From the IMG/VR virus record IMGVR_UViG_3300029533_000034: a DNA stretch of 64,000 nucleotides; one strand, given 5' to 3'. The position numbers were made by a program, and so were the translations under genes. This document shows, piece after piece, positions 634 to 55,838 of this stretch. The stretch's first letter is position 1. Each line of letters opens with the position of its first letter. Source of the DNA: a virus (lineage: Duplodnaviria; Heunggongvirae; Uroviricota; Caudoviricetes). A model generated the notes under the pieces. The model had not been told where the DNA came from. It worked only from the letters and a program-made list of their open reading frames with translations, and searched no databases.

Positions 634-705
634 ACAATCCAAATATCACATTAAAGAGAGGGAAAAATTTTCCTCTCTTTTTTTTATAAAATTTTCCAAA
701 ACTCT

Positions 706-745
706 TTGACAATTTTTTGAATGGCGCAATATGTATATTAGAAAA
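706..745 (+). promoter_or_regulatory. recurring phage promoter, copy 1 (TTGACA - 17 nt spacer containing GGCGCAAT - ATATGTAT)
   Basis: matches 10 other copies of the motif in this window. Confidence 0.5.
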
Positions 746-1121
746 GATAAACAGACATTTGTTCGAGAGGGGATTTTGTATGTACAAAAAGAGAGTTAAG
801 GGGAAAGGAAGAAAAACAAAGAAAAAACAGGAAAACCTCTACCGGTTTGGGAATGGAGAAAAAATTCTGTTTTCTTATTCACAGAAGCGTAAGATGGATC
901 GGAAGTCTCATGTAGAAAGCATTGCATGTACGAGAAAAGCAGGAGAAAATTACTGGGATATGTGGGACAGGGGCTACCCGAACCGGACAAGAATTAGAAC
1001 GTATTTTACACACCTGTCAATATAGCAATTAAAAGTAATCAGTTTGTTTTTATTTATGTGAGAGAACCAATGGCGCTCCCGTATGGAGCATTTGGAAATT
1101 GTAGTTTTTGAGGTAACTGTG

Positions 1122-5565: not shown

Positions 5566-6450
5566 ATGAAAAAATCAAACGAAGAAAAAACTTATGCAAC
5601 TCTTAAACTTGGTAAGACTTATAAGTTTGCCGGATACAATTGGATGGCCTGTGAAGTGGATAATGACTGTCATGTTGTTGTAATCCAGTCGCATGGGGTA
5701 ACCCATGGTGCATGGCCTGGATATACAATGCCACAGTTTGGAAACGGCAATTACTATTCCAATTCCATTGATGGAAAGGACATCAGCGACTACGATGACA
5801 AGATGCGGGCACTTTACGATGACATCAAAGATGCAGAGGATAAAGCTGCTCCTTATGGGGAAGGACTGTATTTGATATCAGTGGAAAAAGCCGAGTTTAA
5901 GGAATGGGATAACACAGGTTCCGGAAATTACTGGCAGGCATTGAAGGCAACGGCAGAAAACGCCCATTCGTTCCGGGATGCCAATTACTTTGCGTGGCTC
6001 GGTGCTGACAATGGCAGCAAAGGCGCGTGGTGTGTTGACTCGGATGGCTGCTTCTACAACTACTTCAATAAACGCAACGACTTTGTTATTGCCCCATGCT
6101 TCAACTTAGATTTATCGAAGGTTAAAGTTGTAGATAACGAAATCGTCATTATAGACAATAAATTTGGTATATCCTTAATTGAGAAACCAGATGTTTATGG
6201 CCTGGTAAAATCAGAAATCATTAAAATGTATGACATGCTGGACACGGATGAAGTATACCCGTTAGAAATCAGCGGTTCCCAGAGTTCTGCAATGGGCTTT
6301 ATTACCCAAAAGGCAGCGGAAGTCATTGATTATGACTACGAGAATTCGGGGCTGAATGAATTTATATCATCTATTCTGGATGATATGGATAAGGAATCAG
6401 AAGACAGTATCTATGATTTCCATGGTATTAAAATTCATCTTGAACGTTGA
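5566..6450 (+). CDS. paralog family A protein (GYxW...QSHGVTHGxWPG...APxFNLDLSKVK), copy 1 of 3
   Basis: AAAGGAGA RBS; clear similarity to the ORFs at 29494 and 52459. Confidence 0.6.
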   Translation: MKKSNEEKTYATLKLGKTYKFAGYNWMACEVDNDCHVVVIQSHGVTHGAWPGYTMPQFGNGNYYSNSIDGKDISDYDDKMRALYDDIKDAEDKAAPYGEGLYLISVEKAEFKEWDNTGSGNYWQALKATAENAHSFRDANYFAWLGADNGSKGAWCVDSDGCFYNYFNKRNDFVIAPCFNLDLSKVKVVDNEIVIIDNKFGISLIEKPDVYGLVKSEIIKMYDMLDTDEVYPLEISGSQSSAMGFITQKAAEVIDYDYENSGLNEFISSILDDMDKESEDSIYDFHGIKIHLER

Positions 6451-8305: not shown

Positions 8306-8453
8306 CAACAAATCACTTAAGGGGGAATGGGAAACCGTTCCTTCTTTTTCTGCCTGCAAGCAGACGATGTATACAGTTTATCTCAAAAATTAAAATATGA
8401 GGTTTTTCAGTATACGGTTGCAAAAATATTTTTAAAAAACTTTCTAAATTCCT

Positions 8454-8492
8454 TTGACAATTTTCCAGATGGCGCAATATGTATCATGTAAA
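8454..8492 (+). promoter_or_regulatory. recurring phage promoter, copy 2
   Basis: TTGACA...GGCGCAATATGTATCATG. Confidence 0.55.
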
Positions 8493-8631
8493 GGTCATAA
8501 ACCGAGCTGCCAGGGTTACCGGCTGGCAGAAATCCTTTCGATATTTGTTTACGCTTCCGGGGAAACCCGGAAAGGAGCAGGAGGACAGCAGCACATGCTG
8601 CTTCCGGGTCCGATTCCCGGATGCTTCTTTT
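8490..8631 (+). ncRNA. structured ~140-nt RNA, family copy 1 (5' hairpin, GNRA hairpin, variable hairpin, tRNA T-arm-like hairpin, U-tract)
   Basis: about 85% identical to 3 other copies, with compensatory changes in the stems. Confidence 0.55.
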
Positions 8632-8695
8632 ACAAGACCGCACGAAGCGGCACAAAAACCATATAAACATGACAAAGTACAGGGAGATTAAAAAA

Positions 8696-10999
8696 ATGAA
8701 TCAGAATAAGAAGATAGCAGAGAAAAAATCAAGACCATACCAGCAGGAATGCATTGATAAGGTAGATAGCTTAAAAGAAGGAAGATTCCTGATTGCTCTT
8801 GCAACAGGGCTTGGGAAGACATGGATCTTCTCCCACTTTAAGAGATACGGAAGGGTACTTATTCTTTCACACAGGGATGAACTGGTCAACCAGCCGAGAC
8901 GGTATTTCGACTGTAGTTTTGGCGTAGAAAAGGCAGAAAACCATTCCAATGGGGAAGAGGTAGTATCTGCGAGTGTTCAGACACTCAGCCATGACTCCCG
9001 TCTTAAGCAGTATAAGCCGGACGATTTCCACACGATCATCATTGATGAGGCGCACCACGCTGCCGCACCATCCTATAAGAAGATCTTAAATTATTTTTCC
9101 GGCGCTAAGCGTGTAATCGGTGTCACGGCAACTCCGAAGCGTGGCGACAACGTCCGGTTAGATGACGTTTTTAACGAGATTATTTATGCAAAGGATCTTC
9201 GTTGGGGGATTAAAAATAAATATTTAAGTCCGGTGCACTGCCGGGAGGTCCGTGCAAAATATTCCCTGAAAGGCGTAAAAAAATCTATGGGGGATTTTAA
9301 TGTATCCGATTTGGACGGTTGTATTACGGAAGAAGCTGTAATAAGTGTTGCAAAAGTTCTTACAGACTGTCTCCAGGAGAATCGGCATATTCTTATTTAT
9401 TGTACTACTGTCAGAACCTGTAATTTCCTGAAGGCAGTAGTTGACAAACTGCTCCCGGAAAAAGAACGTGGCAGTGTTGCTGTTTTATCAGGGAAAACAC
9501 AGGAAGAAGATAGAAAAAATATGCTTGATGGTTTTATGAACGGGAGTGTCCGCGCCATTATTAACTGCATGGTTTTAACAGAAGGTACAGATCTTCCTAT
9601 TGCGGATACCATTATCAACTTCCGGCCGACGTGCAACGCGTCTTTGTATCAGCAGATCATCGGAAGAGGAACCCGGCTCTATGAAGGTAAGGAAAACTGT
9701 TTATGCATTGATATTCTTCCAGATGATGGCAGCGGGACAAGAAATCTGTGTACAGCTCTTACTCTTTTTGGTATAGATGCAAAACTTCTTGGAAAGAAAC
9801 AGTCTCGAATGCTTGAAGGTGAGATTGATCCGCTTGAGATTAGCGATGAAATTGCAGGACGATTTGCAGAACTTACAAAGGCGTATGAATATCGGTTGGA
9901 GCAGGTTAATCGCTTTGTGCAGGAGCAGGAAGAAATTATATCTTCTGCGCGGAAGAAACCACATGCAGATTTAAGCGACCTTGCGCATGCAGTAGATAAA
10001 TATAATTCAAAGAAAATGGATGAATTCCAAAATGATTATGATTTTCTTGGAATGGATTACTCACTTATGCCGGATACGGAACATCGTTATTGTATCAAAC
10101 CTACATGGAATGACCATATTTACCTTGCTGATCCAGATGTTATGGGTAATACAACAGTTACGTTTGATCTTACTGCCAGTGTCGGGAAATATTATATCGG
10201 TGAAATGAAAATGCAGGATGCAATTTCATTTGTTCATGATTTTTGTATGGTATCTCCAGATTATATGAAATATTCCTGGAACGTGGCATTACAAGATGAA
10301 TGGGGGAAAATAAAAGCAACTGAAAATCAAATTGGACGTCTTATGAATGAGTATGACGGGTTTCACAAAGGAAATATTAACAAGCTCCAAGCATCCAGAC
10401 TGATTGATCTTGCCTCTCGTATTTCGAAGATGAAGGCAGAGGGGAAAATGATGCTTATTACACCAAGAATGCAGGAAAAAACAATTGATAAAAAAAAGAA
10501 AATGTTTAAGGAAATACTCGAAAAGGAACTGAGGGCAAAAGAGCAGGGGCGTAGTGAGTTTGGAGAATTCCAGTCGAAAATCTTTGCTTTGGCAGAAAAA
10601 AAGAAAAAAGACGAAGAGAAATTAAAGAACCAAAAGCCTTTGGAAGAAGAAATGCTCGAAAATGGGGCAATTACAGTTAATATTGCTGTTTTTAGTTCAA
10701 AAAAAACAGCAAGCGATGCGCAGATAAAATTTCTTGGTAATTTAAAAGATAAATTAAAAACCAGAGGAGTGGCTGTTGATAAAAAAATTCCTTATATAGG
10801 AATGGGAGCAGAAGAGGCAAGTGTATATATTACTATATTAAAAACGCTTGTAGATCGTAACGTAGACCTTATAAAATATGGGGAAAAAATTTATTTTAAT
10901 CCAAATACAATCATGGGTGTTGTATTAAAACTAAAGGACACTTCATCCAGAGAAATTAAATGTTGTGTCCCGTTCGAAAAAATAGAAGAATTGAGATAA
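8696..10999 (+). CDS. SF2 (DEAD/DEAH-type) helicase with long K/E-rich C-terminal extension
   Basis: motifs GLGKT (I), IIDEAHH (II), GVTATP (III), QQIIGRGTR (VI); GGGAG RBS at the 8696 ATG. Confidence 0.8.
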   Translation: MNQNKKIAEKKSRPYQQECIDKVDSLKEGRFLIALATGLGKTWIFSHFKRYGRVLILSHRDELVNQPRRYFDCSFGVEKAENHSNGEEVVSASVQTLSHDSRLKQYKPDDFHTIIIDEAHHAAAPSYKKILNYFSGAKRVIGVTATPKRGDNVRLDDVFNEIIYAKDLRWGIKNKYLSPVHCREVRAKYSLKGVKKSMGDFNVSDLDGCITEEAVISVAKVLTDCLQENRHILIYCTTVRTCNFLKAVVDKLLPEKERGSVAVLSGKTQEEDRKNMLDGFMNGSVRAIINCMVLTEGTDLPIADTIINFRPTCNASLYQQIIGRGTRLYEGKENCLCIDILPDDGSGTRNLCTALTLFGIDAKLLGKKQSRMLEGEIDPLEISDEIAGRFAELTKAYEYRLEQVNRFVQEQEEIISSARKKPHADLSDLAHAVDKYNSKKMDEFQNDYDFLGMDYSLMPDTEHRYCIKPTWNDHIYLADPDVMGNTTVTFDLTASVGKYYIGEMKMQDAISFVHDFCMVSPDYMKYSWNVALQDEWGKIKATENQIGRLMNEYDGFHKGNINKLQASRLIDLASRISKMKAEGKMMLITPRMQEKTIDKKKKMFKEILEKELRAKEQGRSEFGEFQSKIFALAEKKKKDEEKLKNQKPLEEEMLENGAITVNIAVFSSKKTASDAQIKFLGNLKDKLKTRGVAVDKKIPYIGMGAEEASVYITILKTLVDRNVDLIKYGEKIYFNPNTIMGVVLKLKDTSSREIKCCVPFEKIEELR

Positions 11000-11069
11000 T
11001 AATATTATATTAAAAATAAAAGGTTGATACTATGTATAAAAATAAATACAATATTCTTTTAAAAAAATT

Positions 11070-11108
11070 TTGACGATTTTTAAGATGACGCAATATGTGT
11101 ATTGTAAA
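11070..11108 (+). promoter_or_regulatory. recurring phage promoter, copy 3
   Basis: TTGACG...GACGCAATATGTGT. Confidence 0.5.
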
Positions 11109-11247
11109 GGTTATAAACCGAGCTGCCAGGGTTACCGGCTGGCAGAAATCCTTTCGATATTTGTTTACGCTTCCGGGTAATACCCGAAAGGGATAGTGAG
11201 GACACAGCGTAAGCTGTTCTGGGTTCGACTCCCGGATATCTCTTTTT
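11105..11247 (+). ncRNA. structured ~140-nt RNA, family copy 2 (3' hairpin is GGGTTCGACTCCC, i.e. a canonical tRNA T-arm)
   Basis: paralog of 8490, 33063, 36227. Confidence 0.55.
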
Positions 11248-11286
11248 TAAATGAAATTACAGAAAAAACAATATGGAGGGAAAAAG

Positions 11287-11592
11287 ATGGACGAGTTGAT
11301 CTGGAAACTTCGGGCATATGCTGATGCATACGAAAAAGAACCAACAGGGCGGGAAGTCGAGGGCACCGTGGAATTGCTCGAGAATTCTGCAGATGTTTTG
11401 CAGGAAGCAAAAGAATCCGTTGAGAAATTAAAGCAGAGGTTTATGTATGGAATGGATGTCCATTATCAGGGGAACGATGCGGATGATTATATTGAATGTC
11501 CATTCTGCGGATATGAGGTTGCAGCGATCGACGATTACCGTGAGCAGCGTCCAAATCATTGTCCGAAATGCGGAACAAAACTGATATACTAG
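11287..11592 (+). CDS. small protein with C-terminal zinc ribbon (CPFCG...CPKCG)
   Basis: GGAGGG RBS. Confidence 0.5.
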   Translation: MDELIWKLRAYADAYEKEPTGREVEGTVELLENSADVLQEAKESVEKLKQRFMYGMDVHYQGNDADDYIECPFCGYEVAAIDDYREQRPNHCPKCGTKLIY

Positions 11593-11631: not shown

Positions 11632-11866
11632 GTTGCACCCCGCAAGGGTGCAGGGTTGAAATATTATACTGAATCGTCGCTGCCTGCATAGATATAGTTG
11701 CATCCCTTATGGGATGTATGGGTTGAAATTCAATAGAAACAGATGCATTCGGAGGTGTTACAAGTTGCACCCCCGCAAGGGGTGCATGGGTTGAAAATAA
11801 GAAATGGTAGGAAGGAATTCAGATATGAACATTAGTTGCATCCCGCAAGGGGTGCAGGGGTGAAAT
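11632..11866 (+). CRISPR. CRISPR mini-array 1: 4 degenerate type I-C-like repeats (GTTGCACCCCGCAAGGGGTGCATGGGTTGAAAT), 3 spacers of 34-37 nt
   Basis: repeat/spacer periodicity read directly from the sequence. Confidence 0.8.
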
Positions 11867-12025
11867 AAAAGGATGTTGCCATATATGTCAACCAAACTCG
11901 GCTATTGAATAAATAACCGAGCATGATTTCTTCGGAACTGCTGAATCATGCAGTCTGACTGGTGAAGCGATGGTATACATATTTGAGCAAATTAAACAAA
12001 AATACAGAATCAGAGGAGAAATAAC

Positions 12026-19012: not shown

Positions 19013-19149
19013 ATTTTTATCATTTCAGGATGTCACGATTATAACGAAGCAAACAGAGGAATGGAGATTGGCTTTGGTATTTCTCTTATCCTCGCCCAAA
19101 TTGTTGTTACGTTGACATATCTGGCTTTTGGAGGTGTGTTGTAATTTCT

Positions 19150-19222
19150 TGCGGAGCAGAGCAGAGGAGGCTCACCGGGCTCATGACCTGGGTGTCGGAG
19201 GTTCGATTCCTTCCTCCGCAAT
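19150..19222 (+). tRNA. tRNA-Met/Ile2 (anticodon CAT)
   Basis: cloverleaf: acceptor tgcggag/ctccgca, D-stem gagc/gctc, anticodon loop cuCAUga, T-loop TTCGATT. Confidence 0.65.
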
Positions 19223-27149: not shown

Positions 27150-27228
27150 GCAGCCAAAACACAGTTCCATATTCATGATATAGGACTGTGTTTTTTTGTA
27201 AGAAAATAAATAAAATTTTAAATTTCCT

Positions 27229-27265
27229 TTGACGAATTTTGAGATGGATAAATATATATACTGAA
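27229..27265 (+). promoter_or_regulatory. variant copy of the recurring promoter (TTGACG...GGATAAATATATATACT)
   Basis: -35 and spacing conserved; the GCGCAAT block has diverged. Confidence 0.4.
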
Positions 27266-27350
27266 GATAAAAATTGCCATACAGGAGACAGAACACATAG
27301 AATTTTCTGTCATCCTTTAAATATCAGAAAATTAAAGGAGAATAATTTCC

Positions 27351-28787
27351 ATGAAAGAAAATTTTTTCCACCAGCTTCTTTCCATGTTTAGGGTAACACC
27401 GGAATATCCGGAAACACTTATCCCGTCCGTAGAGGAAACCGCGAGAATTTTAAAAATAAACCCGGAAATATATAAGAGATTTGAGAATGCCTACCAGACT
27501 TCAGATGCTATAGGTATTCCCGGCTATCCCGTAAATGCAAAACAGGCTGCCAGAGAAAAAGAGGGAGTGGGTACATCTGCTCCGGATCTTTCCTCTCTTA
27601 TGAACAGGATCGTTAGAGAGTTGGAAAACGATACTTTTATCTGGCAGTACACGGATGGAACTGTTTCCCCATTTAGTATCAACATTCCGGAAATACCGGA
27701 ACCTGTAACAGTGGAAGAGTTAAACATGATTCCACGGGAATACCGCCCACAGCTTGCCGGGAATGTCGTCTGCAGGGGCTGGAATGACCATGCTGGACGG
27801 CAGGCTGCATACTGGTATAACCTTGCAGTCACTGGAAAATCAGAAAAGAAAAGGGAAGAAGCTTATTCCATGTTCCGGAAAAGTCTGGATATCCTTAACC
27901 CTGATCTTGTTACATACAAAATGATGGGGATGAATGTCAATTCCATGGGTTACTGGCTTCCAAAGATGGTGAATGCCATAAAGGAAGACGGCTTCTTTAA
28001 AATTCCAGGCACAACAATCATTAAAATCCCGCTTCCTCTGTTACAGCTCACATTTCTGGAATACAGCGACATTAACCGTACAACCCTTGATATCGTTGAT
28101 GATTACTGCAGGAAGGTTTTTTCGTTGGACGAGACAAAGGAATACTTCATTAAAACCGGAGTTTTTTCATCCAAATATGATTTCAGAAATGCCCGTGTAA
28201 GTGGGGCAAAGGAAGTCCGTGAACTTGGCGAATACCTGCTGTATATCCATGGATTTTCAAGGGTTGTTGGTGGTCCAACATCCTATGGTGCTGCCACAAC
28301 TAACGAGTGGGTGGTTCGTGACTTTATTCCAGACACAGAGAATAACCCAACGATCTACCATGGTCTGCCGCTCCATACGGAATACCGGGTATTTGTGGAT
28401 TTTAATGCTACGGATCCCTTTGAGCAGGTGCTTGGTATCAGTCCATATTGGGAACCAAAAACCATGAAAAATCATTTCAAGCCTCTTGCAGAAGGCCGCA
28501 GGGGAATGGATCCGGATGCATACCATGACTACTGCACGTATTCCGTTGCCGAGGAAAAACTGATGAAGAGGTACGAAGAAAACAAGGAGAGGGTTCTGAA
28601 TCATGTTTTGAATATCGTCCGCTGCAATGAACAGATGCACGGACAGTGGTCCATGGATATTATGCAGAATGGAAATGATTTCTGGTTTATCGACATGGCA
28701 ACAGCAAGTGAATCTGCATTAAAAGAATGTATTCCGAAAGGAAAATTAAAAAAGATGAAAGAAAACTGGATTCCGGAGATCAGATAG
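27351..28787 (+). CDS. hypothetical 478-aa protein (possible ATP-grasp-like C-terminus, unverified)
   Basis: long ORF; AGGAGA RBS. Confidence 0.6.
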   Translation: MKENFFHQLLSMFRVTPEYPETLIPSVEETARILKINPEIYKRFENAYQTSDAIGIPGYPVNAKQAAREKEGVGTSAPDLSSLMNRIVRELENDTFIWQYTDGTVSPFSINIPEIPEPVTVEELNMIPREYRPQLAGNVVCRGWNDHAGRQAAYWYNLAVTGKSEKKREEAYSMFRKSLDILNPDLVTYKMMGMNVNSMGYWLPKMVNAIKEDGFFKIPGTTIIKIPLPLLQLTFLEYSDINRTTLDIVDDYCRKVFSLDETKEYFIKTGVFSSKYDFRNARVSGAKEVRELGEYLLYIHGFSRVVGGPTSYGAATTNEWVVRDFIPDTENNPTIYHGLPLHTEYRVFVDFNATDPFEQVLGISPYWEPKTMKNHFKPLAEGRRGMDPDAYHDYCTYSVAEEKLMKRYEENKERVLNHVLNIVRCNEQMHGQWSMDIMQNGNDFWFIDMATASESALKECIPKGKLKKMKENWIPEIR

Positions 28788-29504: not shown

Positions 29505-30069
29505 AATATTTAGAGTAGGTCAAACCTACAGTTTCATGGGTTACGATTGGACGGCCTGTGAGCTGATCAATAAAGGTAAAACCCTTGTGATTCAGTCCCA
29601 TGGTGTAACCCATGGGGAATGGCCGGGCTTTGTAATGCCACAGTTTGGAAATGGTGATTACTATTCCAAATCCATTGATGGCAAAGATATCAGTGCCTAT
29701 GACAACAAGATGAAAGAACTGTACGATACCATCAAGGATGCAGAGGATTCATCCGTTTCCTATGGAAAAGGTCTGTACCTCATTCCCAAAGAAAAAGCCG
29801 GTTTTACGGAGTGGGGTGAACCCGGTTCTGGCAACTACTGGCAGGCTTTGAAAGAGGCAGCGGAAGACGCTCAGTCGTTCGGGTCTCGCTACAACTGTGC
29901 GTGGCTTGGTACCGTCAACGGTAGTTACAGCGCGTGGTATGTCTACTCGGATGGCAACGTCTACTACGGCAACGGTCAGGGCTACGACTATGTGGTCGCG
30001 CCCGCTTTCAACCTTGACTTGTCCAAAGTTAAAATTATCGAAAATCAAATTATCAAAAATGAAAAATAA
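29494..30069 (+). CDS. paralog family A protein, copy 2 of 3
   Basis: GGAGAAGAGA RBS; similarity to 5566 and 52459. Confidence 0.6.
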   Translation: MNSEIFRVGQTYSFMGYDWTACELINKGKTLVIQSHGVTHGEWPGFVMPQFGNGDYYSKSIDGKDISAYDNKMKELYDTIKDAEDSSVSYGKGLYLIPKEKAGFTEWGEPGSGNYWQALKEAAEDAQSFGSRYNCAWLGTVNGSYSAWYVYSDGNVYYGNGQGYDYVVAPAFNLDLSKVKIIENQIIKNEK

Positions 30070-30258: not shown

Positions 30259-30333
30259 TGTGTAAGAAAAGAGCCTTTGGACGAGGTTCTTTTTTTTATT
30301 TAAAAAAAATTTTCAAGAAATTTCTGATTTTCT

Positions 30334-30372
30334 TTGACGATTTTTCAAAAGGCGCAATATGTGTAATGAAGA
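30334..30372 (+). promoter_or_regulatory. recurring phage promoter, copy 5
   Basis: TTGACG...GGCGCAATATGTGT. Confidence 0.5.
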
Positions 30373-30403
30373 CGAAAATAAGACGATTTTGGAGGGAGAA
30401 AAA

Positions 30404-31124: not shown

Positions 31125-32909
31125 ATGAGTGGTTTACCATTAGATCCTATTATTATTGCGGTTGTTGCTGTTGTTGTGATCCTTATCTGCATACTTGCCA
31201 GCGGGTATGTCAAAGCGCCAGCAGACAAGGCGTACATCATTTCCGGACTTAAGAAAGTGCCAAAGGTGTTAATTGGCCGGGCGGGAATTAAGATTCCTTT
31301 TCTGGAAAGAAAAGACGAACTTCTGTTGAAGCAGATCGGTATTGATATTAAAACCGGAGGTTATGTTCCAACGAAAGACTTCATTGGTGTTGATATTGAT
31401 GCGATTGCAAAAATCCGTCTGATTTCCATGCAGGATGTAGGAAAAGAGAAAACCTATACCAGAACAATCGTTGATGAGATTACTGACGGAAGCAATACAA
31501 AAGATGGGGATAAGGAATATTCAACTCATACAGAGGCCGTAACAATCAAGATTACAGAAGATATGGCGCGTGCGGCAATGCGAAATTTTCTTAATATGAA
31601 AGAATCCAACATTATCGAGGCATTACAGGATTCCTTACAGGGAAATATGCGCGAAATCGTTGGTACGCAGACTTTACGTGCTTTGTGCCAGGATCGTAAA
31701 TCCTTTGGTGATGAGGTCCAGAGTAAGGCACAGCCGGACATGAATGCCCTTGGTGTATGGATCGAGTCATGCAATATCCAGCGTATTGAGGACGAGCAGG
31801 ATCTGATCAATGCCCTTGGTATGGACAACATGGCTGCCATTCAGAAGAGTGCAAGTATTGCAAAGGCAGAGGCAGACAAAGACGTTGCAATTGCGCAAGC
31901 AAAGGCAGCAAGAGAAGCAAACGATGCAAAAGTTGCCGCTGACACGGAAATTGCTGAGAAGCAGAACGACCTTGCAATCAAGAAGGCAGAGTTGCAACAA
32001 CTTTCTGACACAAAGAAGGCGATTGCGGATGCTGCATATAAGATCCAGGAGCAGGAACAGCGTAAGGCGATTGAGACATCAAAGGTTAATGCAGATATTG
32101 CGGAGCAGGAAAGAACTGTTGAACTTCGAGAAAAGGAAGCACAGGTTGCAGAACAGACGCTTAATGCGACGGTAAAGAAGCAGGCGGATGCAGACAAGTA
32201 CAGCAGACAGCAGGCTGCAGAAGCAAATCTGATTGAAAAATCCCGTCAGGCCGATGCAGAAAAATATCAGCAGGAGAAAGAAGCAGAAATCCAGCAGATT
32301 AAGGCAGAGGCAGACAAGGAAGCGAAGAAGAAAGAAGCGGAAGGTATCCTTGCGGTCAAGAGAGCTGAAGCGGAAGGTATTGCCGCTGTAGGTAAGGCAG
32401 AAGCAGAAGCGATCGAGGCGAAGGGTCTTGCAGAGGCGCAGGCGATGGAGAAGAAAGCGGAAGCTTATTCGAAATACAATAAGGCTGCCGTTGCAGAAAT
32501 GATGATTAAAGTGCTTCCGGAGATTGCAGCCAAAGTTGCCGAGCCGCTTGGACAGATTGATAAGATTACAATCATCGGAGGCGGCGAGGGCGGCAATGGT
32601 GTCGATCAGGTTGCCGGAAATGTACCTGTTGTTATGGCAAAGGTCTTTGAAAGCGTTAAGGAAGCGACTGGAATTGATCTGACAAGCATTGTTAATGCTG
32701 AGTCTTACGATGCAAAGGTTAACCGCAATGTTAATTTGACCGGCATTAATGACATGGTGACAATTTCTGGTGGATCAAAGAGTGAAGCGGACGAAAATGG
32801 AACCGCAAATTCCGGCATTGATTCTGACTTTGCGGAAGAGAATGCAGAGACGATTCGTTCCGTGGCAGATAACTCCAATCAGGAGCAGGCTGACGGTAAT
32901 CTGATTTAA
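31125..32909 (+). CDS. flotillin-like SPFH/band-7 protein with long A/E/K/Q coiled-coil tail
   Basis: N-terminal TM segment, SPFH core, then a ~300-aa coiled-coil, as in YqiK/FloT. Confidence 0.7.
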   Translation: MSGLPLDPIIIAVVAVVVILICILASGYVKAPADKAYIISGLKKVPKVLIGRAGIKIPFLERKDELLLKQIGIDIKTGGYVPTKDFIGVDIDAIAKIRLISMQDVGKEKTYTRTIVDEITDGSNTKDGDKEYSTHTEAVTIKITEDMARAAMRNFLNMKESNIIEALQDSLQGNMREIVGTQTLRALCQDRKSFGDEVQSKAQPDMNALGVWIESCNIQRIEDEQDLINALGMDNMAAIQKSASIAKAEADKDVAIAQAKAAREANDAKVAADTEIAEKQNDLAIKKAELQQLSDTKKAIADAAYKIQEQEQRKAIETSKVNADIAEQERTVELREKEAQVAEQTLNATVKKQADADKYSRQQAAEANLIEKSRQADAEKYQQEKEAEIQQIKAEADKEAKKKEAEGILAVKRAEAEGIAAVGKAEAEAIEAKGLAEAQAMEKKAEAYSKYNKAAVAEMMIKVLPEIAAKVAEPLGQIDKITIIGGGEGGNGVDQVAGNVPVVMAKVFESVKEATGIDLTSIVNAESYDAKVNRNVNLTGINDMVTISGGSKSEADENGTANSGIDSDFAEENAETIRSVADNSNQEQADGNLI

Positions 32910-32970: not shown

Positions 32971-33027
32971 ATTGAAAAGGATCAAGCAGGACACGGTGTA
33001 AGTTTTTTAAAAGCTCTCTAAGCTTCT

Positions 33028-33066
33028 TTGACATTTCAGGAGATGGCGCAAGATGTATCATGTAAA
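33028..33066 (+). promoter_or_regulatory. recurring phage promoter, copy 6
   Basis: TTGACA...GGCGCAAGATGTATCATG. Confidence 0.5.
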
Positions 33067-33205
33067 GACCATAAACCGGGCTGCCAGGTTACCGGCTGGC
33101 AGAAAACTCTTTCGATATTTGTTTACGCTTCCGGGTAATACCCGGAAGGGATAGTTGGTTCGCAGCGTAAGCTGTTCCGGGTCCCATTCCCAGATATCCC
33201 TTTTT
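33063..33205 (+). ncRNA. structured ~140-nt RNA, family copy 3
   Basis: paralog; loop and stem substitutions preserve the hairpins. Confidence 0.55.
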
Positions 33206-33275
33206 CAAATGAAATTACAGAAAAGTCTGGCGTCGTCCACACGATTCGTGCCCGTGAGCAAAGAGAACAAAGGAG

Positions 33276-33343
33276 CACACCCGGAAGGAATCGAACCCTC
33301 GTTGGCGGTTTTGGAGACCACTTTCTGTCCATCAGACAGGTGT
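33276..33343 (-). tRNA. tRNA-Trp (CCA)
   Basis: minus-strand cloverleaf; T-loop TTCGATT; anticodon loop cuCCAaa. Confidence 0.6.
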
Positions 33344-33349
33344 ATATAG

Positions 33350-33439
33350 CGCAGACACCGGGGTTCGAACCCGGACAGCGGTTGTGCCGCATGCCACATT
33401 AGCAGTGTGGAGGGGTACCAGTTACCTTTATATGTCTGC
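33350..33439 (-). tRNA. tRNA-Ser (GCT), long variable arm
   Basis: acceptor gcagaca/tgtctgc; anticodon loop cuGCUaa; T-loop TTCGAAC. Confidence 0.65.
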
Positions 33440-33444
33440 ATAAG

Positions 33445-33516
33445 AGGCATCGGAGGGAATCGAACCCTCACCTTCCGGGTTGCAACCGGACGCCTTAGCC
33501 GTTTGGCTACGATGCC
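33445..33516 (-). tRNA. tRNA-Cys (GCA)
   Basis: acceptor ggcatcg/cgatgcc; anticodon loop uuGCAac. Confidence 0.7.
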
Positions 33517-33547
33517 ATATATGGGTTCCCCTGATAAGGGAGGAGAG

Positions 33548-33631
33548 CGCTGTGCCATGGATTCGAACCTTGACATTCTTTCGGGATGGCGGTTTTTAAG
33601 ACCGCTGCTTTCCCGGTTGAGCCAGTACAGC
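33548..33631 (-). tRNA. tRNA-Leu (TAA), long variable arm, two stem mismatches
   Basis: anticodon stem gcggt/accgc, loop cuUAAaa; T-loop TTCGAAT. Confidence 0.5.
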
Positions 33632-33875
33632 AAAAATAAAGGCACACACCTCTCAATTGAAAGATGTATGCCCCGTTTTCTTAAGTATTTCCTATATTTT
33701 CCCAGAAATTCCCCAGCAATAATCACATTTCTTTCAATTTGAGACGGTATTTACGAGCACGATAACTGCACCAGCTGCATGACTGCGGCTGACTGATACT
33801 TCTCTGTGGACACTGTCTCATTTCTGTTGTCATCATTGTTTTTCCTTCCTTTCCTTGAATTTTTTCAATATTAAG

Positions 33876-33949
33876 TGTGCCTGGTGGGACTTGAACCCGA
33901 CGACGCCACGATTAAAAGTCGCGTGCTCTGCCAACTGAGCTACAGGCAC
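33876..33949 (-). tRNA. tRNA-Lys (TTT)
   Basis: acceptor gtgcctg/caggcac; D-arm TAGCTCAGTTGGCAGAGC; anticodon loop cuUUUaa. Confidence 0.7.
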
Positions 33950-33954
33950 ATGAG

Positions 33955-34026
33955 CGGATCAGGAGGGAATCGAACCCTCGTTTTCCGGTAGACAGCCGGG
34001 TGTAATAGCCTTTATACTACAGATCC
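33955..34026 (-). tRNA. tRNA with GTC anticodon (Asp?); unusual T at position 37
   Basis: canonical T-arm GAGGGTTCGATTCCCTC; anticodon loop cuGUCua. Confidence 0.5.
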
Positions 34027-34030
34027 ATAA

Positions 34031-34103
34031 AGCTCCCGTCCGGCTTCGAACCGGAAACCTTCTGATTACAAATCAGATGCACTGCCAGTTGTGCTACAGG
34101 AGC
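34031..34103 (-). tRNA. tRNA-Thr (TGT)
   Basis: acceptor gctcctg/cgggagc; anticodon stem tctga/tcaga, loop uuUGUaa. Confidence 0.6.
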
Positions 34104-34108
34104 AGGAA

Positions 34109-34181
34109 CACTTCCGACGGGTGCTGACCCCGCTATCTCCGCCGTGACAGGGCGGTGACTCTGCTGTTTGTCCTCGGAAGT
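34109..34181 (-). tRNA. non-canonical tRNA-like gene with a perfect Asp anticodon arm (ccgcc-cuGUCac-ggcgg) but T-loop GTCAGCA instead of TTCGA
   Basis: acceptor acttccg/cggaagt perfect 7 bp; D-stem 3 bp. Confidence 0.4.
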
Positions 34182-34185
34182 ATAG

Positions 34186-34267
34186 TGCGCTGGGGAGGAC
34201 TCGAACCTCCGGTGTTTCTTTGTGGCTGATTTACAGTCAGCTGTCTTCGCCGCTGGACTACCAACGC
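34186..34267 (-). tRNA. tRNA-Tyr (GTA), long variable arm
   Basis: anticodon stem gctga/tcagc, loop cuGUAaa; T-loop TTCGAGT. Confidence 0.65.
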
Positions 34268-34272
34268 ATGAG

Positions 34273-34344
34273 CTGATCCGGAGGGACTCGAACCCTCAAC
34301 GCCCCGGTTAACAGCCGGGTGCTCTACCATTGAGCTACGGATCA
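34273..34344 (-). tRNA. tRNA-Asn (GTT)
   Basis: acceptor tgatccg/cggatca; D-arm TAGCTCAATGGTAGAGC; anticodon loop cuGUUaa. Confidence 0.7.
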
Positions 34345-34345
34345 G

Positions 34346-34417
34346 AGCATGTGACGGGTCTCGAACCCGCCCGTCCTGCTTGGAAGGCAGGTGTGCCGCC
34401 AACAACACTTCACATGC
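34346..34417 (-). tRNA. tRNA-Gly (TCC)
   Basis: acceptor gcatgtg/cacatgc; anticodon stem cctgc/gcagg, loop cuUCCaa. Confidence 0.6.
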
Positions 34418-34984
34418 ATACGGATAAAAGAAGTGCCTGTTTTCTCTTATCCATTCAGTTTTTTACCGCATCGCTGCGGAGTGGACAGGAGTGGTAATGA
34501 TCCACCCTGTAAGGATTTTCAGTCCCTCGCTAATCCATCTCAGCTACCTGTCCATGGCTTTTCTGCAATAAAAAAGCCGCATCAAGAAATTTTCCTTCTT
34601 TCTGCGGTCATCTGCGTTTTGCAATATTTCGGTTTTAAGTGCCTGGTTTAAAATCGAAATCGACCGCGGGAAGGTGTATCATAATAGTTCTGTCCCCATG
34701 TTTTCCCGGATTTTGAGCATGAGAAACTAAACATATTGCTGAAATCGCCGTATGTTCTACAATCATTATTAAAATTTTTACTGCTCATCATCTTTAACAT
34801 GGTTTTCTTTTCCTTTCATTTTAATTAATGCTGGATAAACAAAAAGCCCGTCACTTAACTCAAAGCTACACATTCAAATAGCTCTGAGTTAAAAGACAGG
34901 CACTTCTTTTATCTCATGAGCCTATCATATCATACTGATCGTGAAGTGTCAACAGGAAATTTGAAAAAATAAAACAAATAAAAA

Positions 34985-35635: not shown

Positions 35636-35718
35636 GATTTTTCTCCCTTCATCAATGGTTTTATTTACACTTTTAATATGAAATATTAAACATATTTCAA
35701 AAAATTTCCCGGAAATTT

Positions 35719-35757
35719 TTGACGAAATTTCAAAAGGCGCAATATATGTAATGAAAG
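35719..35757 (+). promoter_or_regulatory. recurring phage promoter, copy 7
   Basis: TTGACG...GGCGCAATATATGT. Confidence 0.5.
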
Positions 35758-35872
35758 GAGGAGGAAATACAAATTGGAATGTTTGACATGCAAGAAACAC
35801 TGATCGCAGGGAGGCCGCTGTTCAGAGAACGTGAGAAACTGCCTGCATTATGAGGAAGAACCAAGAGGAAAA

Positions 35873-36136: not shown

Positions 36137-36190
36137 TAAAGTCACATTTAACATGAAACAAAATTTTTTCAAAAACTTTCAAAATTCCCT

Positions 36191-36229
36191 TGACGAATCC
36201 CCAGATGGCGCAATATGTATCATGTAAAG
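36191..36229 (+). promoter_or_regulatory. recurring phage promoter, copy 8
   Basis: TTGACG...GGCGCAATATGTATCATG. Confidence 0.55.
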
Positions 36230-36365
36230 GTCATAAACCGAGCTGCCAGGGTTACCGGCTGGCAGAAATCCTTTCGATATTTGTTTACGCTTCCGGGGAA
36301 ACCCGGAAGGGATAGTGAGGACGCAGTGTAAGCTGTTCCGGGTCCGATTCCCGGATATCCCTTTT
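36227..36365 (+). ncRNA. structured ~140-nt RNA, family copy 4
   Basis: paralog of 8490, 11105, 33063. Confidence 0.55.
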
Positions 36366-36645
36366 AACTGCCGCAGGTGGTCTTCTCAAATTCAGCTGTC
36401 TGCGGCCTGTGGGATTTCCCACTGAACCAAAATAACGATAACCGCCAGAATTACAGCAGCGTGCGTTGGCGTGAGAACTATCGGCGCACAGGGATTACTC
36501 CTTTCATATTTATCTATCACACCTTTTCGTACATCGTATGGAGAGGCTGTGGAACAGCAGGTGCGTAGCCACGGGCTATTCCGGGATCGTTCCCCAGATG
36601 TTCCATTTTTAAAACATTAAAACAAATTACAGGAGGAAAATAGCG

Positions 36646-37368
36646 ATGGAAAAAGAAGTGGTATATGTCGCAGAACTGGATTCCGATGTTGACGATGTCG
36701 TTGCAGCAAATTACTTATATAATGAAGGGGTCTTAAAATGCGTAGTATGTGACCCATATCCAAGGACACCGGAGGGATTGGCACGAAAGGGAAAGCTGGA
36801 AGCGCTTGGCATCGATGTGGTTAAGAAAATGCCACCGGTTGCAAAATATGTGTTTGTTGGCGGCGCACTTACGGCTGTTGCTGGCTATATCCGGATGCAC
36901 CATGTCGACTGGCTGGTAATGAACGGAGGCTTTGTTGGAGCAAATATTGCGACCCTTGAACTGGATAAGTTCAAGGGGAAGAACACTGTCCGTACCTTCA
37001 ATTTCAACTGCGATGTTGTGGCTGCAGATACGGTTTTGAAAACTGATGAGAAGCATATTTCTCATATTGTTCTTGTTGGAAAGAACGTCTGCCACGATGT
37101 CCGGAATACGAGGAATGGTATCTGGAGTGGCGAGAAATACAAGAAATTGTTTGATGAGTACCGCGTTAAAGATGAGAAGCGTCAACATGACCTACTTGCC
37201 TGCCATGAGGGACTTGCATTCCTGCGGGGAACCAGTAAGATCTGCGAGTATGAGACAGTAAGGCCGTACAATACAGGTTTGAATGGCAAGCTGACACAGT
37301 GGGGCAGCACAAAAACTATGGAAACACCATATCGCGAAGTGCTTGCCGCTGTTGGCTATCGGGATTAA
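36646..37368 (+). CDS. nucleoside hydrolase (IunH/RihA-like) family protein
   Basis: N-terminal Asp cluster ELDSDVDDVVA, plus MNGGF...GAN...TFNFNCDVVAA...VL...HD, colinear with the IU-nucleoside hydrolase motifs DxDxxxDD, MGG..GN..EFN..DPEAA. Confidence 0.5.
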   Translation: MEKEVVYVAELDSDVDDVVAANYLYNEGVLKCVVCDPYPRTPEGLARKGKLEALGIDVVKKMPPVAKYVFVGGALTAVAGYIRMHHVDWLVMNGGFVGANIATLELDKFKGKNTVRTFNFNCDVVAADTVLKTDEKHISHIVLVGKNVCHDVRNTRNGIWSGEKYKKLFDEYRVKDEKRQHDLLACHEGLAFLRGTSKICEYETVRPYNTGLNGKLTQWGSTKTMETPYREVLAAVGYRD

Positions 37369-37370
37369 AA

Positions 37371-37679
37371 GTTACACTCCGCGAGGGGTGTATGGGTTGA
37401 AATTGAATAAATAATGCATCATAAGATATTCCAAATTGTTGCACCCCGCGAGGGGTGCAGGGATTGAAATAAAAGAACCTCTTCGATTCCCGAACACCCT
37501 TGTCTAGGTTGCACCTCGTAAGAGGTGTATGGGTTGAAATCCGGATCTGCTCTGCGGTTAGCATGGCACCACGTTGTTGCACCCTGCGAAGGGTGTATGG
37601 GTTGAAATGTGTTACCATTCCATCTTCTCCACGTCTAACTCTAGTTGCCCCCCCCCGCGCGAGGGGCGCATGGGTTGAA
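37371..37679 (+). CRISPR. CRISPR mini-array 2: 5 degenerate repeats, 4 spacers (34-37 nt); starts 2 nt after the stop codon of the hydrolase gene
   Basis: read directly from the sequence. Confidence 0.85.
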
Positions 37680-37789
37680 ATTGATTTACAGCCGGGGCAA
37701 GAAAATGTACGCTACAAAGTCCTTTCGCACCTGTCTTTTCTGTGGTATACTAAAAGAATAAAAGATATATCCAAGGAGAAGGTTAAAGG

Positions 37790-38682: not shown

Positions 38683-38903
38683 GTTGCGCCCCATTGGGTG
38701 CATGGGTTGAAATCTGAAACCGAATAGATTGGATAGGACAGGCTGAGGTTGCACCCCGCGAGGGGCGTATGGGTTGAAATAGTCCGGACAATCAAAAACG
38801 ATATCGAAGAGCTGTCGTTGCACCCTGCGAGGGGTGTATGGGTTGAAATTGCAGAAAGATCAGGATTGGAAGGTTGCATCCTATGGGATGCATGGATTGA
38901 AAC
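38683..38903 (+). CRISPR. CRISPR mini-array 3: 4 degenerate repeats, 3 spacers (34, 36 and an unusually short 23 nt)
   Basis: read directly from the sequence. Confidence 0.8.
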
Positions 38904-38939
38904 GAACATATTTGTTATTATTTATTATTGAGATCAGAA

Positions 38940-38978
38940 AGGTCTGCAGTCAGTTAATCTGGCTGCAGATTTTTTTTG
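38940..38978 (+). terminator. rho-independent terminator (tctgcagtcag...ctggctgcaga + T8)
   Basis: inverted repeat plus T-run. Confidence 0.5.
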
Positions 38979-39006
38979 CAATTTTTCAAAAATTTTCCAA
39001 AATCTT

Positions 39007-39045
39007 TTGACGATTTTTTAAAAGGCGCAATATACATATTGAAGG
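39007..39045 (+). promoter_or_regulatory. recurring phage promoter, copy 9, directly upstream of cas5c
   Basis: TTGACG...GGCGCAATATACAT. Confidence 0.55.
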
Positions 39046-39086
39046 GATAAACAGGGGCTTGCCGCTGTTGATTACCAGAGTTAAAA

Positions 39087-39126: not shown

Positions 39127-39801
39127 ATGGAAAAAGAAAAAATGGGAGTGAAACTAAAAGTCTGGGGAGATTATGCATTGTTCACCAGACCGGAACTGAA
39201 AACAGAACGGTATACCTATGACGTGATGACTCCGTCGGCAGCTAGGGGGATTCTGGAATCCATCTACTGGCATCCGGGATTACGGTGGTACGTAGATAAA
39301 ATCCACGTATTAAATCCGATTGCCACTACAAGCGTAAGAAGGAATGAACTTCTCAGCAAGATACCGAAATCAAATATGTTACAGGCATATAACGGCGGCG
39401 ATGTCAAGCTGTATAATTCGTCAAGAGACGATATTATCCAGAGGGCATCCGTGATCCTCCGTGATGTCAGCTACGTGATTGAAGCACATTTTGAAATGAC
39501 GGACAAGGCAAGCCCGACGGACAGCCCGGCGAAGTTTATCAGCATCTTTAATAACAGGGCAAGAAAAGGGGCGTGCTATTCGATGCCGTATTTCGGGGTA
39601 AGGGAATTTCCGGCACACTTTGAACTCTATGAAGGTGATGAAAAGATCCCATCCTGTTATGAAAGACTTCCGGACAGGGATTTCGGGCTGATGCTTTATG
39701 ACCTGGATTATTCCTGCGGAAGAGATATCCAGCCAATGTATTACCATGCAGTTATGAAAAATGGCATCATTGATGTCGGGAACAGTGAGGTGTTTCGATG
39801 A
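39127..39801 (+). CDS. cas5: type I-C Cas5c (Cas5d) crRNA-processing subunit
   Basis: N-terminal region VWGDYALFTRPELKTERYTYDVMTPSAARGILESIYWHP matches the Cas5d family signature. Confidence 0.9.
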   Translation: MEKEKMGVKLKVWGDYALFTRPELKTERYTYDVMTPSAARGILESIYWHPGLRWYVDKIHVLNPIATTSVRRNELLSKIPKSNMLQAYNGGDVKLYNSSRDDIIQRASVILRDVSYVIEAHFEMTDKASPTDSPAKFISIFNNRARKGACYSMPYFGVREFPAHFELYEGDEKIPSCYERLPDRDFGLMLYDLDYSCGRDIQPMYYHAVMKNGIIDVGNSEVFR

Positions 39802-41537: not shown

Positions 41538-41538
41538 T

Positions 41539-43340: not shown

Positions 43341-43424
43341 TCGCTGTAAAAGCTGTCTCTTTCAGGGGCAGCTTTTTTGTATGTGGGAAAATTTTTAAAA
43401 AAATAAAAAAGTTTCCATAATCTT

Positions 43425-43463
43425 TTGACGATTTGGAAGATGGCGCAATATGTATATTGTAAT
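43425..43463 (+). promoter_or_regulatory. recurring phage promoter, copy 10
   Basis: TTGACG...GGCGCAATATGTAT. Confidence 0.5.
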
Positions 43464-43546
43464 GGATAAACATGGAGTTCTTTTAAATCTTAATTTAGTT
43501 AACTCAATGTTTAAAAACATTACAGTAACAGTAACGGAGGGAAAAT

Positions 43547-53088: not shown

Positions 53089-53190
53089 GTGGCGGTAGCT
53101 CAGTCTGGTAGTAGCACTCCTGTATGGCATCGTAAATGCGTGTAAGGAACCATGCAGGTGTTGTCGGAGGTTCAAATCTTTCCCGCCACA
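53089..53190 (+). tRNA. atypical ~102-nt tRNA-like gene: canonical acceptor, D- and T-arms, but a 9-bp stem with 22-nt loop in place of the anticodon/variable region
   Basis: acceptor gtggcgg/ccgccac; D-arm TAGCTCAGTCTGGTAG; T-loop TTCAAAT; no standard 7-nt anticodon loop identified. Confidence 0.4.
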
Positions 53191-54657: not shown

Positions 54658-54682
54658 AATTCATAGAAAGACGGTGATACAG

Positions 54683-55659: not shown

Positions 55660-55767
55660 AACAAAAATAAGAAAGGATTGTAGTGATATACTAATGTTGT
55701 AACAGAAGTGCCTAATTTCACAAAAATTTTAAAAGCTGGTTAATTTTAAAAACTTTTCAAGATTTCC

Positions 55768-55806
55768 TTGACGTTTTTTCAAATGACGCAATATTTATAG
55801 TACAAG
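55768..55806 (+). promoter_or_regulatory. recurring phage promoter, copy 11
   Basis: TTGACG...GACGCAATATTTAT. Confidence 0.5.
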
Positions 55807-55838
55807 GACAAAAAATGCGAAGTACAAGGAGAAAAATT

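Follow-up and report, generated by a model that had tools for sequence, protein, structure and literature searches.

A recurrent promoter module lacking a canonical -10 hexamer on a probable mobile element of the human gut

The Window and Its Promoter Copies

We analyzed a 64,000-nt stretch of DNA (hereafter, the window) from the IMG/VR virus record IMGVR_UViG_3300029533_000034, in which a module of ∼75 nt recurs upstream of protein-coding genes and RNAs. The window has a GC content of 39%, and nearly all of its genes lie on the plus strand. Its Pfam families include Cas5, Cas8c, and Cas7 of a type I-C CRISPR system (operon at 39127-42450), several orphan DNA methylases, a SNF2-type helicase, a flotillin-like protein, the LPD1 polyvalent-protein domain, an AAA ATPase, GNAT, ASCH, and PcfJ; most of the open reading frames (ORFs) belong to no Pfam family. 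Ten tRNAs form an array on the minus strand (33275-34553), and an eleventh, tRNA-Met, lies at 19149-19222 (+).

Copies of the module were sought as TTGAC-N12-GGCGCAAT, with at most two mismatches, on both strands of the window and compared with 100 shuffles. The pattern returns 10 sites, all on the plus strand, a number reached by none of the shuffles (1.7 ± 1.3; 0/100); GGCGCAAT alone has eight exact matches against 1.6 expected, seven of them inside promoter copies. A profile hidden Markov model (HMM) built from the promoter family and run on both strands recovers the same 10 sites (E = 1e-12 to 1e-18) and a diverged one at 27229 (E = 2e-5), with no further window sequence below E = 0.1. The window holds 11 co-oriented intergenic copies in total, 10 strong and one diverged (Table 1), and these are the 11 already listed by a first-pass annotation of the sequence, apart from a correction of 36191 to 36190. 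That annotation had placed the feature at 706-745, which is part of the conserved unit; repeat analysis (family D1) gives a larger unit of ∼73-75 nt, extending from an A/T-rich tract, AAAAAWTTTCCAAAATCYT, to G(T/A)AARG. The GC island that it had called strictly conserved is near-invariant, being exact (GGCGCAAT) in only 7/11 copies: those at 11070 and 55768 read GACGCAAT, that at 33028 reads GGCGCAAG, and that at 27229 reads GGATAAAT.

The gap between a copy and the preceding plus-strand ORF ranges from 71 to ∼2,800 nt, an ORF or RNA begins within ∼150 nt 3′ of every copy, and terminator-like hairpins lie directly 5′ of two of them (38936-38976 before copy 9 and 43348-43376 before copy 10). 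This sequence context (co-oriented, intergenic, in some cases just after a terminator-like hairpin, and always before an ORF or RNA) supports the earlier view that the repeats are a family of promoters rather than chance repeats. The annotation is also borne out on the units placed behind them, which include the operon of cas5, cas8c, and cas7, a structured RNA present four times, and genes for lipoproteins.

Module Anatomy and Conservation

We number positions from the first T of TTGAC (position 0). Metagenome loci totaling ∼1 Mb provide 96 distinct 74-nt variants (94 after filtering) and 108 distinct HMM-hit segments, and the conservation profile was taken over 89 variants. The module opens with the A/T-rich tract (positions -30 to -1), which resembles an UP element at the usual place relative to a -35. 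Positions 0-5 read TTGACG, with TTGACR in 11/11 window copies and in every related variant, so that the -35 of the first-pass annotation, with its UP-like tract upstream, is convincing. There follows a conserved 11-nt stretch, ATTTTTyARAW (ATTTTT at 6-11; A13 in 85/89 variants and A15 in 88/89), and then GGCG (17-20), directly joined to CAATAT (21-26). A variable stretch (27-32) comes next. Position 33 is a pyrimidine in 85/89 variants and position 34 a purine in 89/89, with (T/A)AARG next. Near-invariant bases (TTGACG, A13, A15, GGCG, and CAATAT) are interspersed with positions that vary freely (11, 12, 14, 27, 29, and 32), and in 108/108 HMM-hit segments CAATAT stands at an offset of 21 nt from TTGAC; six seeming exceptions are regex artefacts, as judged from the sequences themselves.

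Part of this conservation is ascertainment, since the metagenome scan pattern itself fixed TTGAC and GGCGCAATATGTRT. We therefore examined 39 variants off the strict pattern, found only through their nearness to a strict match. TTGAC is kept in 39/39 and CAATAT in 33/39, GGCG tolerates single substitutions (GACG, AGCG, GGAG, GGCT, GGCA, and GGTG), and positions 27-33 take forms such as ACATACC, ATATACC, TTATAGT, GTGAAGT, ATAAGGT, ATCAGAT, and ATCTTGT.

The module could also be a recently copied cassette whose island has no function of its own and is conserved through duplication or gene conversion: four copies share another 150-230 nt downstream (repeat families D2 and D5), and orthologous sets differ by few substitutions anywhere. 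This appears highly improbable. Over ∼95 distinct variants the flanks and several internal positions are near-random, whereas TTGACG, A13, A15, and GGCGCAATAT are fixed, and such alternation of fixed and free positions, at a spacing that never changes, argues for selection rather than recency.

The Proposed -10 Hexamer and the Predicted Transcription Start

No canonical -10 follows the -35. The hexamers 16, 17, and 18 nt from it are AATATG, ATATGT, and TATGTR, none with both A(-11) and T(-7), and a scan of the window with the sigma-70/sigma-A consensus called no family copy; the 17-nt spacing proposed earlier fails because nothing like a -10 stands at these distances. Several other candidates were tried and rejected. 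TATGTA, at 18 nt, never has T as its sixth base. TATATT/TATCAT (28-33) is separated from the -35 by 22 nt and has A as its second base in just 50/89 variants, with G in 37/89 and C in 2/89 (∼44% G/C), and off-pattern copies read GAAGTG, AAGGTG, and CAGATG there; the overlapping ATGTAT/TATCAT block, which had been taken for the -10, is variable in the same copies (GTGAAG, ATAAGG, ATCAGA, and ATCTTG). An extended -10 (TGn or TRTGn) finds no TG in register for any candidate hexamer, GGCG occupying -16 to -13 of CAATAT. For a sigma-54 promoter (TGGCAC-N5-TTGCW), TGGCGC is present without TTGC at the required distance, where ATATGTAT stands instead, and a Bacteroidetes-type -33/-7 promoter is unfit in spacing or motif. 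In Frpo-type single-stranded DNA promoters, known from plasmid leading regions, the transferred strand folds into a long hairpin that reconstitutes the -35 and -10; here, DNA folding of both strands gives z = -1.7 to +0.4, no common structure, and no covarying columns.

The most conserved -10-like hexamer is CAATAT, which stands 15 nt from TTGACG with an invariant second-base A and sixth-base T. Half of it lies in the GC island, which would then not be the dispensable spacer that had been supposed: the 3′ half of the island and the next two bases make up the hexamer. A diverged copy in a related locus (L029) has T for C21, giving TAATAT, nearer to the sigma-A consensus. The Y33-R34 step fits the -1/+1 rule at 7-8 nt past CAATAT, and positions 33-36 onward are probably transcribed, because T33-A38 takes part in the 5′ helix predicted for the structured RNA (without compensatory changes) and the copy at 35719 has a Shine-Dalgarno sequence, AAAGGAGGAGG, at positions 35-45. 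From these features and the retained A and T we infer the -10 hexamer, the start site, and, as discussed below, the kind of factor that recognizes them: CAATAT would be the true -10, with a 15-nt spacer; GGCG would be its upstream extension and not a passive spacer insert; and transcription would start near G34 (e.g., at window positions 740, 8488, 39041, and 43459).

The structured RNA is ∼150 nt long and has four plus-strand copies directly behind family promoters (8487-8640, 11103-11250, 33061-33210, and 36223-36372), with 21 distinct homologues in related loci. Its 3′ half is tRNA-like, with a T-arm (CCGGGTYCGAYTCCCGG) and an acceptor-like stem that changes in a compensatory manner (GGGATA/TATCCC vs. 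GGAGCA/TGCTTC); five sequences carry compensatory changes in this domain. The sole Rfam match is a partial, sub-threshold one to the Deinococcus Y RNA (E = 0.003; 28 bits against a gathering score of 80), and a gene for a CCA-adding enzyme lies ∼7 kb upstream of the window (L132 1804-3186). Elsewhere, the Rfam tRNA model matches 102 nt at 53089-53190 (+) with 33.6 bits where ARAGORN makes no call; this could be an insertion-bearing tRNA or a tRNA-like RNA of another kind.

The Element and Its Distribution

Proteins identical to those of the window are encoded by human-gut contigs in ENA that reach 267 kb, and one element protein is listed in 981 blocks of an assembly collection. Flanks and related loci add PolIII-alpha, NAD ligase, RecG-like and Suv3-like helicases, ClpX, RuvB, DnaJ, ThyA, the CCA-adding enzyme, an ORF of at least 3,745 aa, BspA-type leucine-rich repeat (LRR) proteins, TnpB, IS110 elements, a Mob_Pre relaxase, and RecJ. 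When 20-25 kb pieces were compared by megablast with the phages of GenBank and the plasmids of PLSDB, there was no match apart from a tRNA; the element is absent from both collections, and IMG/VR likewise has no close relative of it.

We searched 185,579 species genomes, and also metagenomes, with a strict form of the motif 20 bases long. It has one match in the species genomes, on the chromosome of Roseburia faecis JCM 17581, and at least 113 metagenome stretches contain it, nearly all from human gut. The 10 single matches from a motif scan of IMG/VR were rejected as chance, because they all lie in unrelated GC-rich or coding contexts. Within the element the promoters are unevenly spread, with 12 copies in ∼58 kb (the window and 2 kb upstream), and none is present in the 8 kb before that region or in the last 8 kb of the window and the 10 kb beyond. 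The element is likely a large, megaplasmid-like or huge-phage-like, mobile one of human-gut Lachnospiraceae, with R. faecis or a close relative as host.

Recognition of the Module

We tentatively favor, at a little less than even chances, an element-specific promoter class carried by this large mobile element and composed of the UP-like tract, TTGACG, and, a short spacer away, GGCG-CAATAT as a composite -10. This -10 would give the family its own specificity, and its reader might be an alternative or element-encoded sigma-type factor or an RNA polymerase remodeller; alternatively, sigma-A might act on it sub-optimally, so that the whole regulon is tuned together. A specificity of its own seems most likely because the geometry is off-optimum for a housekeeping sigma and because the same element has a canonical promoter. 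The latter, at 34952-34924 (-), fits the sigma-A pattern of the textbooks (TTGACA, 17 nt, TG-n-TATGAT) and has a similar tract, TTTTTCAAATTTCCTG, upstream; it heads the ten-tRNA array and is the sole canonical intergenic promoter found in the window. Set beside it, the family has a like upstream half and a different -10 half, and its -10 module looks like a deliberate departure. Nor is an element-borne sigma far-fetched, since G1 Hodor megaplasmids encode a 212-aa sigma-70-family protein (bioRxiv 10.64898/2026.02.21.707213).

Several points weigh against this interpretation. A spacer as short as 15 nt suits sigma-A poorly, and it is unusual to find C at -12. Pfam detects no sigma gene in 20 kb of flanks, and phmmer searches with RpoD, RpoE, and FliA, together with a region-2 regex, find none in the ORFs of ∼1 Mb of related loci, a partial sampling of the element. 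T30, A31, T33, and G34 mirror CAATAT as a partial dyad, which favors a dimeric repressor. Finally, most family members share ancestry, so that the conservation counts are not independent events, and orthologous groups have too few substitutions to prove selection independently in an orthologue-only profile.

Among window ORFs of ∼50 aa or more we find no Pfam domain of the sigma, MotA/AsiA-like, helix-turn-helix (HTH), or ribbon-helix-helix (RHH) kind, and ORF 54632-54892 (54683), which the first-pass annotation had suggested as a regulator gene, has no detectable DNA-binding family. A full-text literature search for GGCGCAATAT returned unrelated papers only.

The partial dyad is the starting point of another explanation, less likely but a serious rival: over the -10/+1 region of a host sigma-A promoter would lie the operator of a single element-encoded repressor or activator, all units being switched together. 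An operator of one regulator for all units is also what the first-pass annotation had proposed. The operator would be the GC island, the dyad CAATAT-N2-ATATTG, or both. Positions 29-34 mirror 21-26, with C21:G34 in 85/89 variants, A22:T33 in 76/89, T24:A31 in 73/89, and A25:T30 in 86/89; ∼4.7/6 positions are complementary on average, the left half is invariant, so that covariation is unreadable, and GGCGCAAT itself is asymmetric. The start-site rule accounts for T30, A31, T33, and G34 no better than a repressor dimer sitting on the -10/+1 region would, the copies are clustered like a regulon in one ∼58-kb region, and an Xre-type HTH_26 gene (73 aa) lies 36 nt beyond the window end. The binder might even be RNA-guided, as a spacer in a variant of the element (L018) spans the UP tract through the island of a family-type promoter, next to a TTC protospacer-adjacent motif (PAM). 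However, GGCG lies outside the dyad without a symmetric partner, the right half of the dyad is degenerate in off-pattern copies, and the position and orientation of the island relative to the -35 are constant in 108 variants, whereas independent operators usually drift. No regulator is tied to the site, and the Cascade spacer matches the element's own promoters over 15 PAM-proximal nt only, with a TTT PAM. The canonical -10 is also still missing, so that RNA polymerase must read CAATAT in any case, and the operator and composite -10 models are compatible with each other. A second dyad, AAAATC-N7-GATTTT around the -35, was rejected for lack of covariation. A methylation switch through the GCGC of the island finds no support either: GCGC is neither depleted nor enriched elsewhere (97 observed vs. 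86 expected), and ∼15% of variants lose it.

Group-3 sigma promoters are marked by an A/T-rich -10 core that lies close to the -35 and has G/C-rich bases fused to it; the consensus is CTTGAAA-N13-15-CCCCATNT for sigma-32 and TAAA-N15-GCCGATAA for sigma-28. It is conceivable, if quite improbable, that a host alternative sigma of this type (stress, motility, or sporulation) reads the promoters and that the element has borrowed the class. In our own comparison with the textbook consensus, TTGACG-N13-CGCAATAT parallels the sigma-32 layout, a full and a diverged copy stand before host-type cassettes in the R. faecis chromosome, and no element sigma was found in the searched loci. Yet the 185,579 species genomes hold the strict motif just once, so that it is not a common host promoter class, RpoH (sigma-32) is not known from Firmicutes, and the module fits none of the sigma-D, H, B, E, F, G, and K consensus sequences, its spacing being 3-4 nt short for sigma-H and its -35 wrong for sigma-D.

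Comparison with Known Promoter Systems

The first-pass observation is sound and its promoter call right, while the anatomy that it proposed (17-nt spacing, with the island in a dispensable spacer) is not. What we describe is most likely a non-canonical recognition module within a stereotyped mobile-element promoter regulon, the latter already a recognized type of system. Among the closest parallels are strong UP-element sigma-70/sigma-A promoters, such as the highly stereotyped early promoters of the large phages T4, T5, and SPO1. They, too, have a -35 close to consensus (here TTGACR) and A/T-rich sequence between -60 and -40, they head the transcription units of a mobile genome in many near-identical copies, and their conservation reaches beyond both hexamers. 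Unlike them, the module has no TAnnnT at 16-18 nt and no TGn, and its CAATAT, at 15 nt, is fused to a GC block. The junction of a G/C block with an A/T-rich -10 core close to the -35 recalls the group-3 promoters of sigma-32 and sigma-28, as does, for sigma-32, the TTGA-type -35, but the sequence fits neither consensus and no such sigma was found in the searched element loci.

Plasmid and phage operators offer a further comparison. As with the KorA and KorB operators of RK2 and the C1 operators of P1, one short conserved sequence lies over the -10 region of many dispersed promoters; the P1 C1 repressor binds dispersed asymmetric 17-bp operators. Those operators are separable from the promoter and variable in position and orientation, whereas the block described here is locked to the -35 and takes the place of the missing -10, and no cognate regulator was identified among window ORFs. 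T4 middle promoters (MotA/AsiA) are likewise a phage-specific class, defined by an asymmetric conserved box (8-10 bp) whose distance from a sigma-70 hexamer is fixed. They combine a perfect -10 and a box at -30 with no -35; the present module has a perfect -35, an aberrant -10, and a box at approximately -17 to -8, and no MotA or AsiA homologue was found among window ORFs.

At the level of the whole element, the nearest relatives in character may be the Hodor conjugative megaplasmids of the human gut, which were first filed among huge phages and carry type I-C cas genes with degraded arrays (bioRxiv 10.64898/2026.02.21.707213). Like the element, they come from the human gut, exceed 200 kb, have a predicted host in Bacillota (Clostridia), and encode a giant secreted-type protein as well as a CCA-adding enzyme; differences are the GC content (39% in the window vs. 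44.6-47.1%), the length of Cas8c (579 aa vs. 644 aa), and the gene order (bioRxiv 10.64898/2026.02.21.707213). Hodor membership would be marked by Rep_3, ParA/B/M, sortases, SecYEG, a type IV secretion system (T4SS), and giant S-layer/MBG proteins. The element fragments examined, which are promoter-adjacent only, show type I-C cas genes, the ORF of at least 3,745 aa, the CCA-adding enzyme, and the Mob_Pre relaxase, with no sortase, Rep_3, or T4SS gene seen in them, and the resemblance, drawn from these fragments alone, is suggestive. Promoters are not discussed in the Hodor preprint (bioRxiv 10.64898/2026.02.21.707213).

A Chromosomal Copy in R. faecis and the CRISPR Link

The type I-C operon of the window comes without cas3, cas1, cas2, or cas4, none of which is present in the window or within 10 kb on each side. 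Four plus-strand mini arrays of degenerate I-C repeats (D3) each lie downstream of a family promoter (∼11640-11960, 37371-37689, 38748-38857, and 42699-43000). The single chromosomal match of the strict motif, in R. faecis JCM 17581 (locus L016), is flanked by the chromosomal genes PhoU, PstB, response regulator, Fic, MerR, and GlmS. Its cassette begins with a full family promoter (TTGACG at 7591), followed by a solitary type I-C-like repeat, GTACCATACAAGTGGTACATGGATTGAAAT, whose "spacer" has no target among the sequences examined. About 240 nt past the first promoter is a diverged one, TTAACA-N11-GGCAACATAT (TTGACA in other strains), and behind it a 29-aa ORF that reaches the Pfam Hol_Tox threshold (25.9 bits, E = 9e-6), a putative holin-like toxin. 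The toxin gene is present in chromosomal loci only and not in the element; the ∼100 nt downstream of it are 81% identical to element DNA.

Two spacers connect the element with this cassette. A window spacer (42864-42897) equals the minus strand of L016 7743-7776 in 34/34 positions, adjoining a TTC PAM, and the L018 spacer mentioned above matches the toxin promoter from the UP tract to GGCAACA (L016 7813-7850), in 33/35 positions in JCM 17581 and 34/35 in other strains, also with a TTC PAM. TTC is the usual type I-C PAM, and these matches link the element to R. faecis as host. Self-targeting of the family promoters by element spacers was considered and rejected, there being one spacer only, with a 15-nt seed and a poor PAM. 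By its sequence, then, the element's Cascade, for which no Cas3 was seen, is aimed at a family-type promoter, and the matches suggest either CRISPR interference or a CreTA-like relationship in trans. In CreTA, crRNA-like RNAs (CreR) guide Cascade to repress a toxin or cas promoter. The present case resembles it in that type I Cascade spacers match a toxin promoter region with the correct PAM and a solitary repeat stands beside the toxin; it differs in that the matches are full-length (34/34 and 33-34/35) and not partial. The arrangement would be in trans, because the toxin and solitary repeat are on the host chromosome and the Cascade and spacers on the mobile element.

The whole JCM 17581 assembly holds one motif match, and the strain is therefore without the element, yet it evidently tolerates a family-type promoter before a toxin. 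This tolerance is compatible with family promoters that need an element factor, with a weak promoter, or with an antitoxin that has escaped our notice. We can join these observations in one scenario, unlikely as it stands, in which the family promoters are silent with unmodified host RNA polymerase until an element-encoded specificity factor reading GGCG-CAATAT switches them on. The R. faecis cassette would have been turned against the element, its toxin firing from a family-like promoter upon element entry, and the Cas3-less Cascade would answer by sitting with its spacers on the toxin promoter as a form of CRISPR interference; alternatively, cassette and element Cascade would be a trans-acting, CreTA-like addiction pair.

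Significance

The element is very common in human-gut metagenomes, and a large part of its accessory and anti-defence-type units, from cas genes and mini arrays to tRNA-like RNAs, a helicase, and lipoproteins, begins with one and the same 75-nt module. For that reason, identifying the factor that recognizes GGCG-CAATAT would expose the element's master switch, and it would also provide the Lachnospiraceae, for which genetic tools are few, with a promoter that is portable and host-specific. Were the factor a new sigma-like or appropriation factor, the rules of promoter recognition in Firmicutes would be extended. The chromosomal copy beside a toxin, targeted by element spacers, is a testable case of RNA-guided silencing between mobile element and host.

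Features of the Window and Neighboring Loci

Table 1. Coordinates of the 11 family promoters in the window, with their sequence features, the units that follow, and HMM scores
Copy	Extent	Strand	Module features	Downstream	HMM score
1	674..746	+	TTGACA 706, UP-like tract, GGCGCAATAT 723-732, predicted start ∼G740	Small ORFs from ∼780	47.1 bits
2	8422..8494	+	TTGACA 8454	∼150-nt tRNA-like structured RNA, then SNF2/ResIII helicase 8621-10999	60.6 bits
3	11038..11110	+	TTGACG 11070, island GACGCAAT	Structured RNA, ORF 11251-11592, mini CRISPR array ∼11640-11960	43.8 bits
4 (diverged)	27197..27269	+	TTGACG 27229, island GGATAAAT	ORF 27351-28787	20.6 bits, E = 2e-5
5	30302..30374	+	TTGACG 30334	ORFs from ∼30400, flotillin-like gene 31125-32909	55.8 bits
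6	32996..33068	+	TTGACA 33028, island GGCGCAAG	Stand-alone structured RNA facing the minus-strand tRNA array	42.1 bits
7	35687..35759	+	TTGACG 35719	Shine-Dalgarno-like AAAGGAGGAGG 1-2 nt past predicted start	53.4 bits
8	36158..36230	+	TTGACG 36190	Structured RNA, ORF 36646-37368, mini CRISPR array 37371-37689	58.7 bits
9	38975..39047	+	TTGACG 39007	cas5, cas8c, cas7, array 42699-43000	59.4 bits
10	43393..43465	+	TTGACG 43425	Lipoprotein gene 43547-44269 and 12-kb block	53.9 bits
11	55736..55808	+	TTGACG 55768, island GACGCAAT	DUF5052 lipoprotein gene and following block	44.4 bits

Past the window end, a related locus (L130 10690-20654) continues with the HTH_26 gene (73 aa), a 2.4-kb non-coding stretch, the Mob_Pre relaxase, and RecJ. 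The genes of the window point toward the Mob_Pre side, in a manner reminiscent of leading-region genes that point toward oriT in conjugative plasmids. Insertions distinguish some strains: an IS110-family transposase lies between the tRNA array and the 35719 promoter (L001/L002 4473-5735, corresponding to window ∼35000), and in another strain a TnpB (OrfB_IS605) insertion has its own family promoter upstream (L130 476-2005).

The paralogous genes at 5603-5902, 29510-29809, and 52540-52607 have in common a conserved segment, ...IQSHGVTHG.WPG(Y/F).MPQFGNG... (D4, D7), and none of the three genes belongs to a Pfam family. GGCC is ∼2.6-fold depleted in the window (34 observed vs. 89 expected under a second-order model), while GCGC, CGCG, and GATC are not, which suggests avoidance of a HaeIII-type restriction system.

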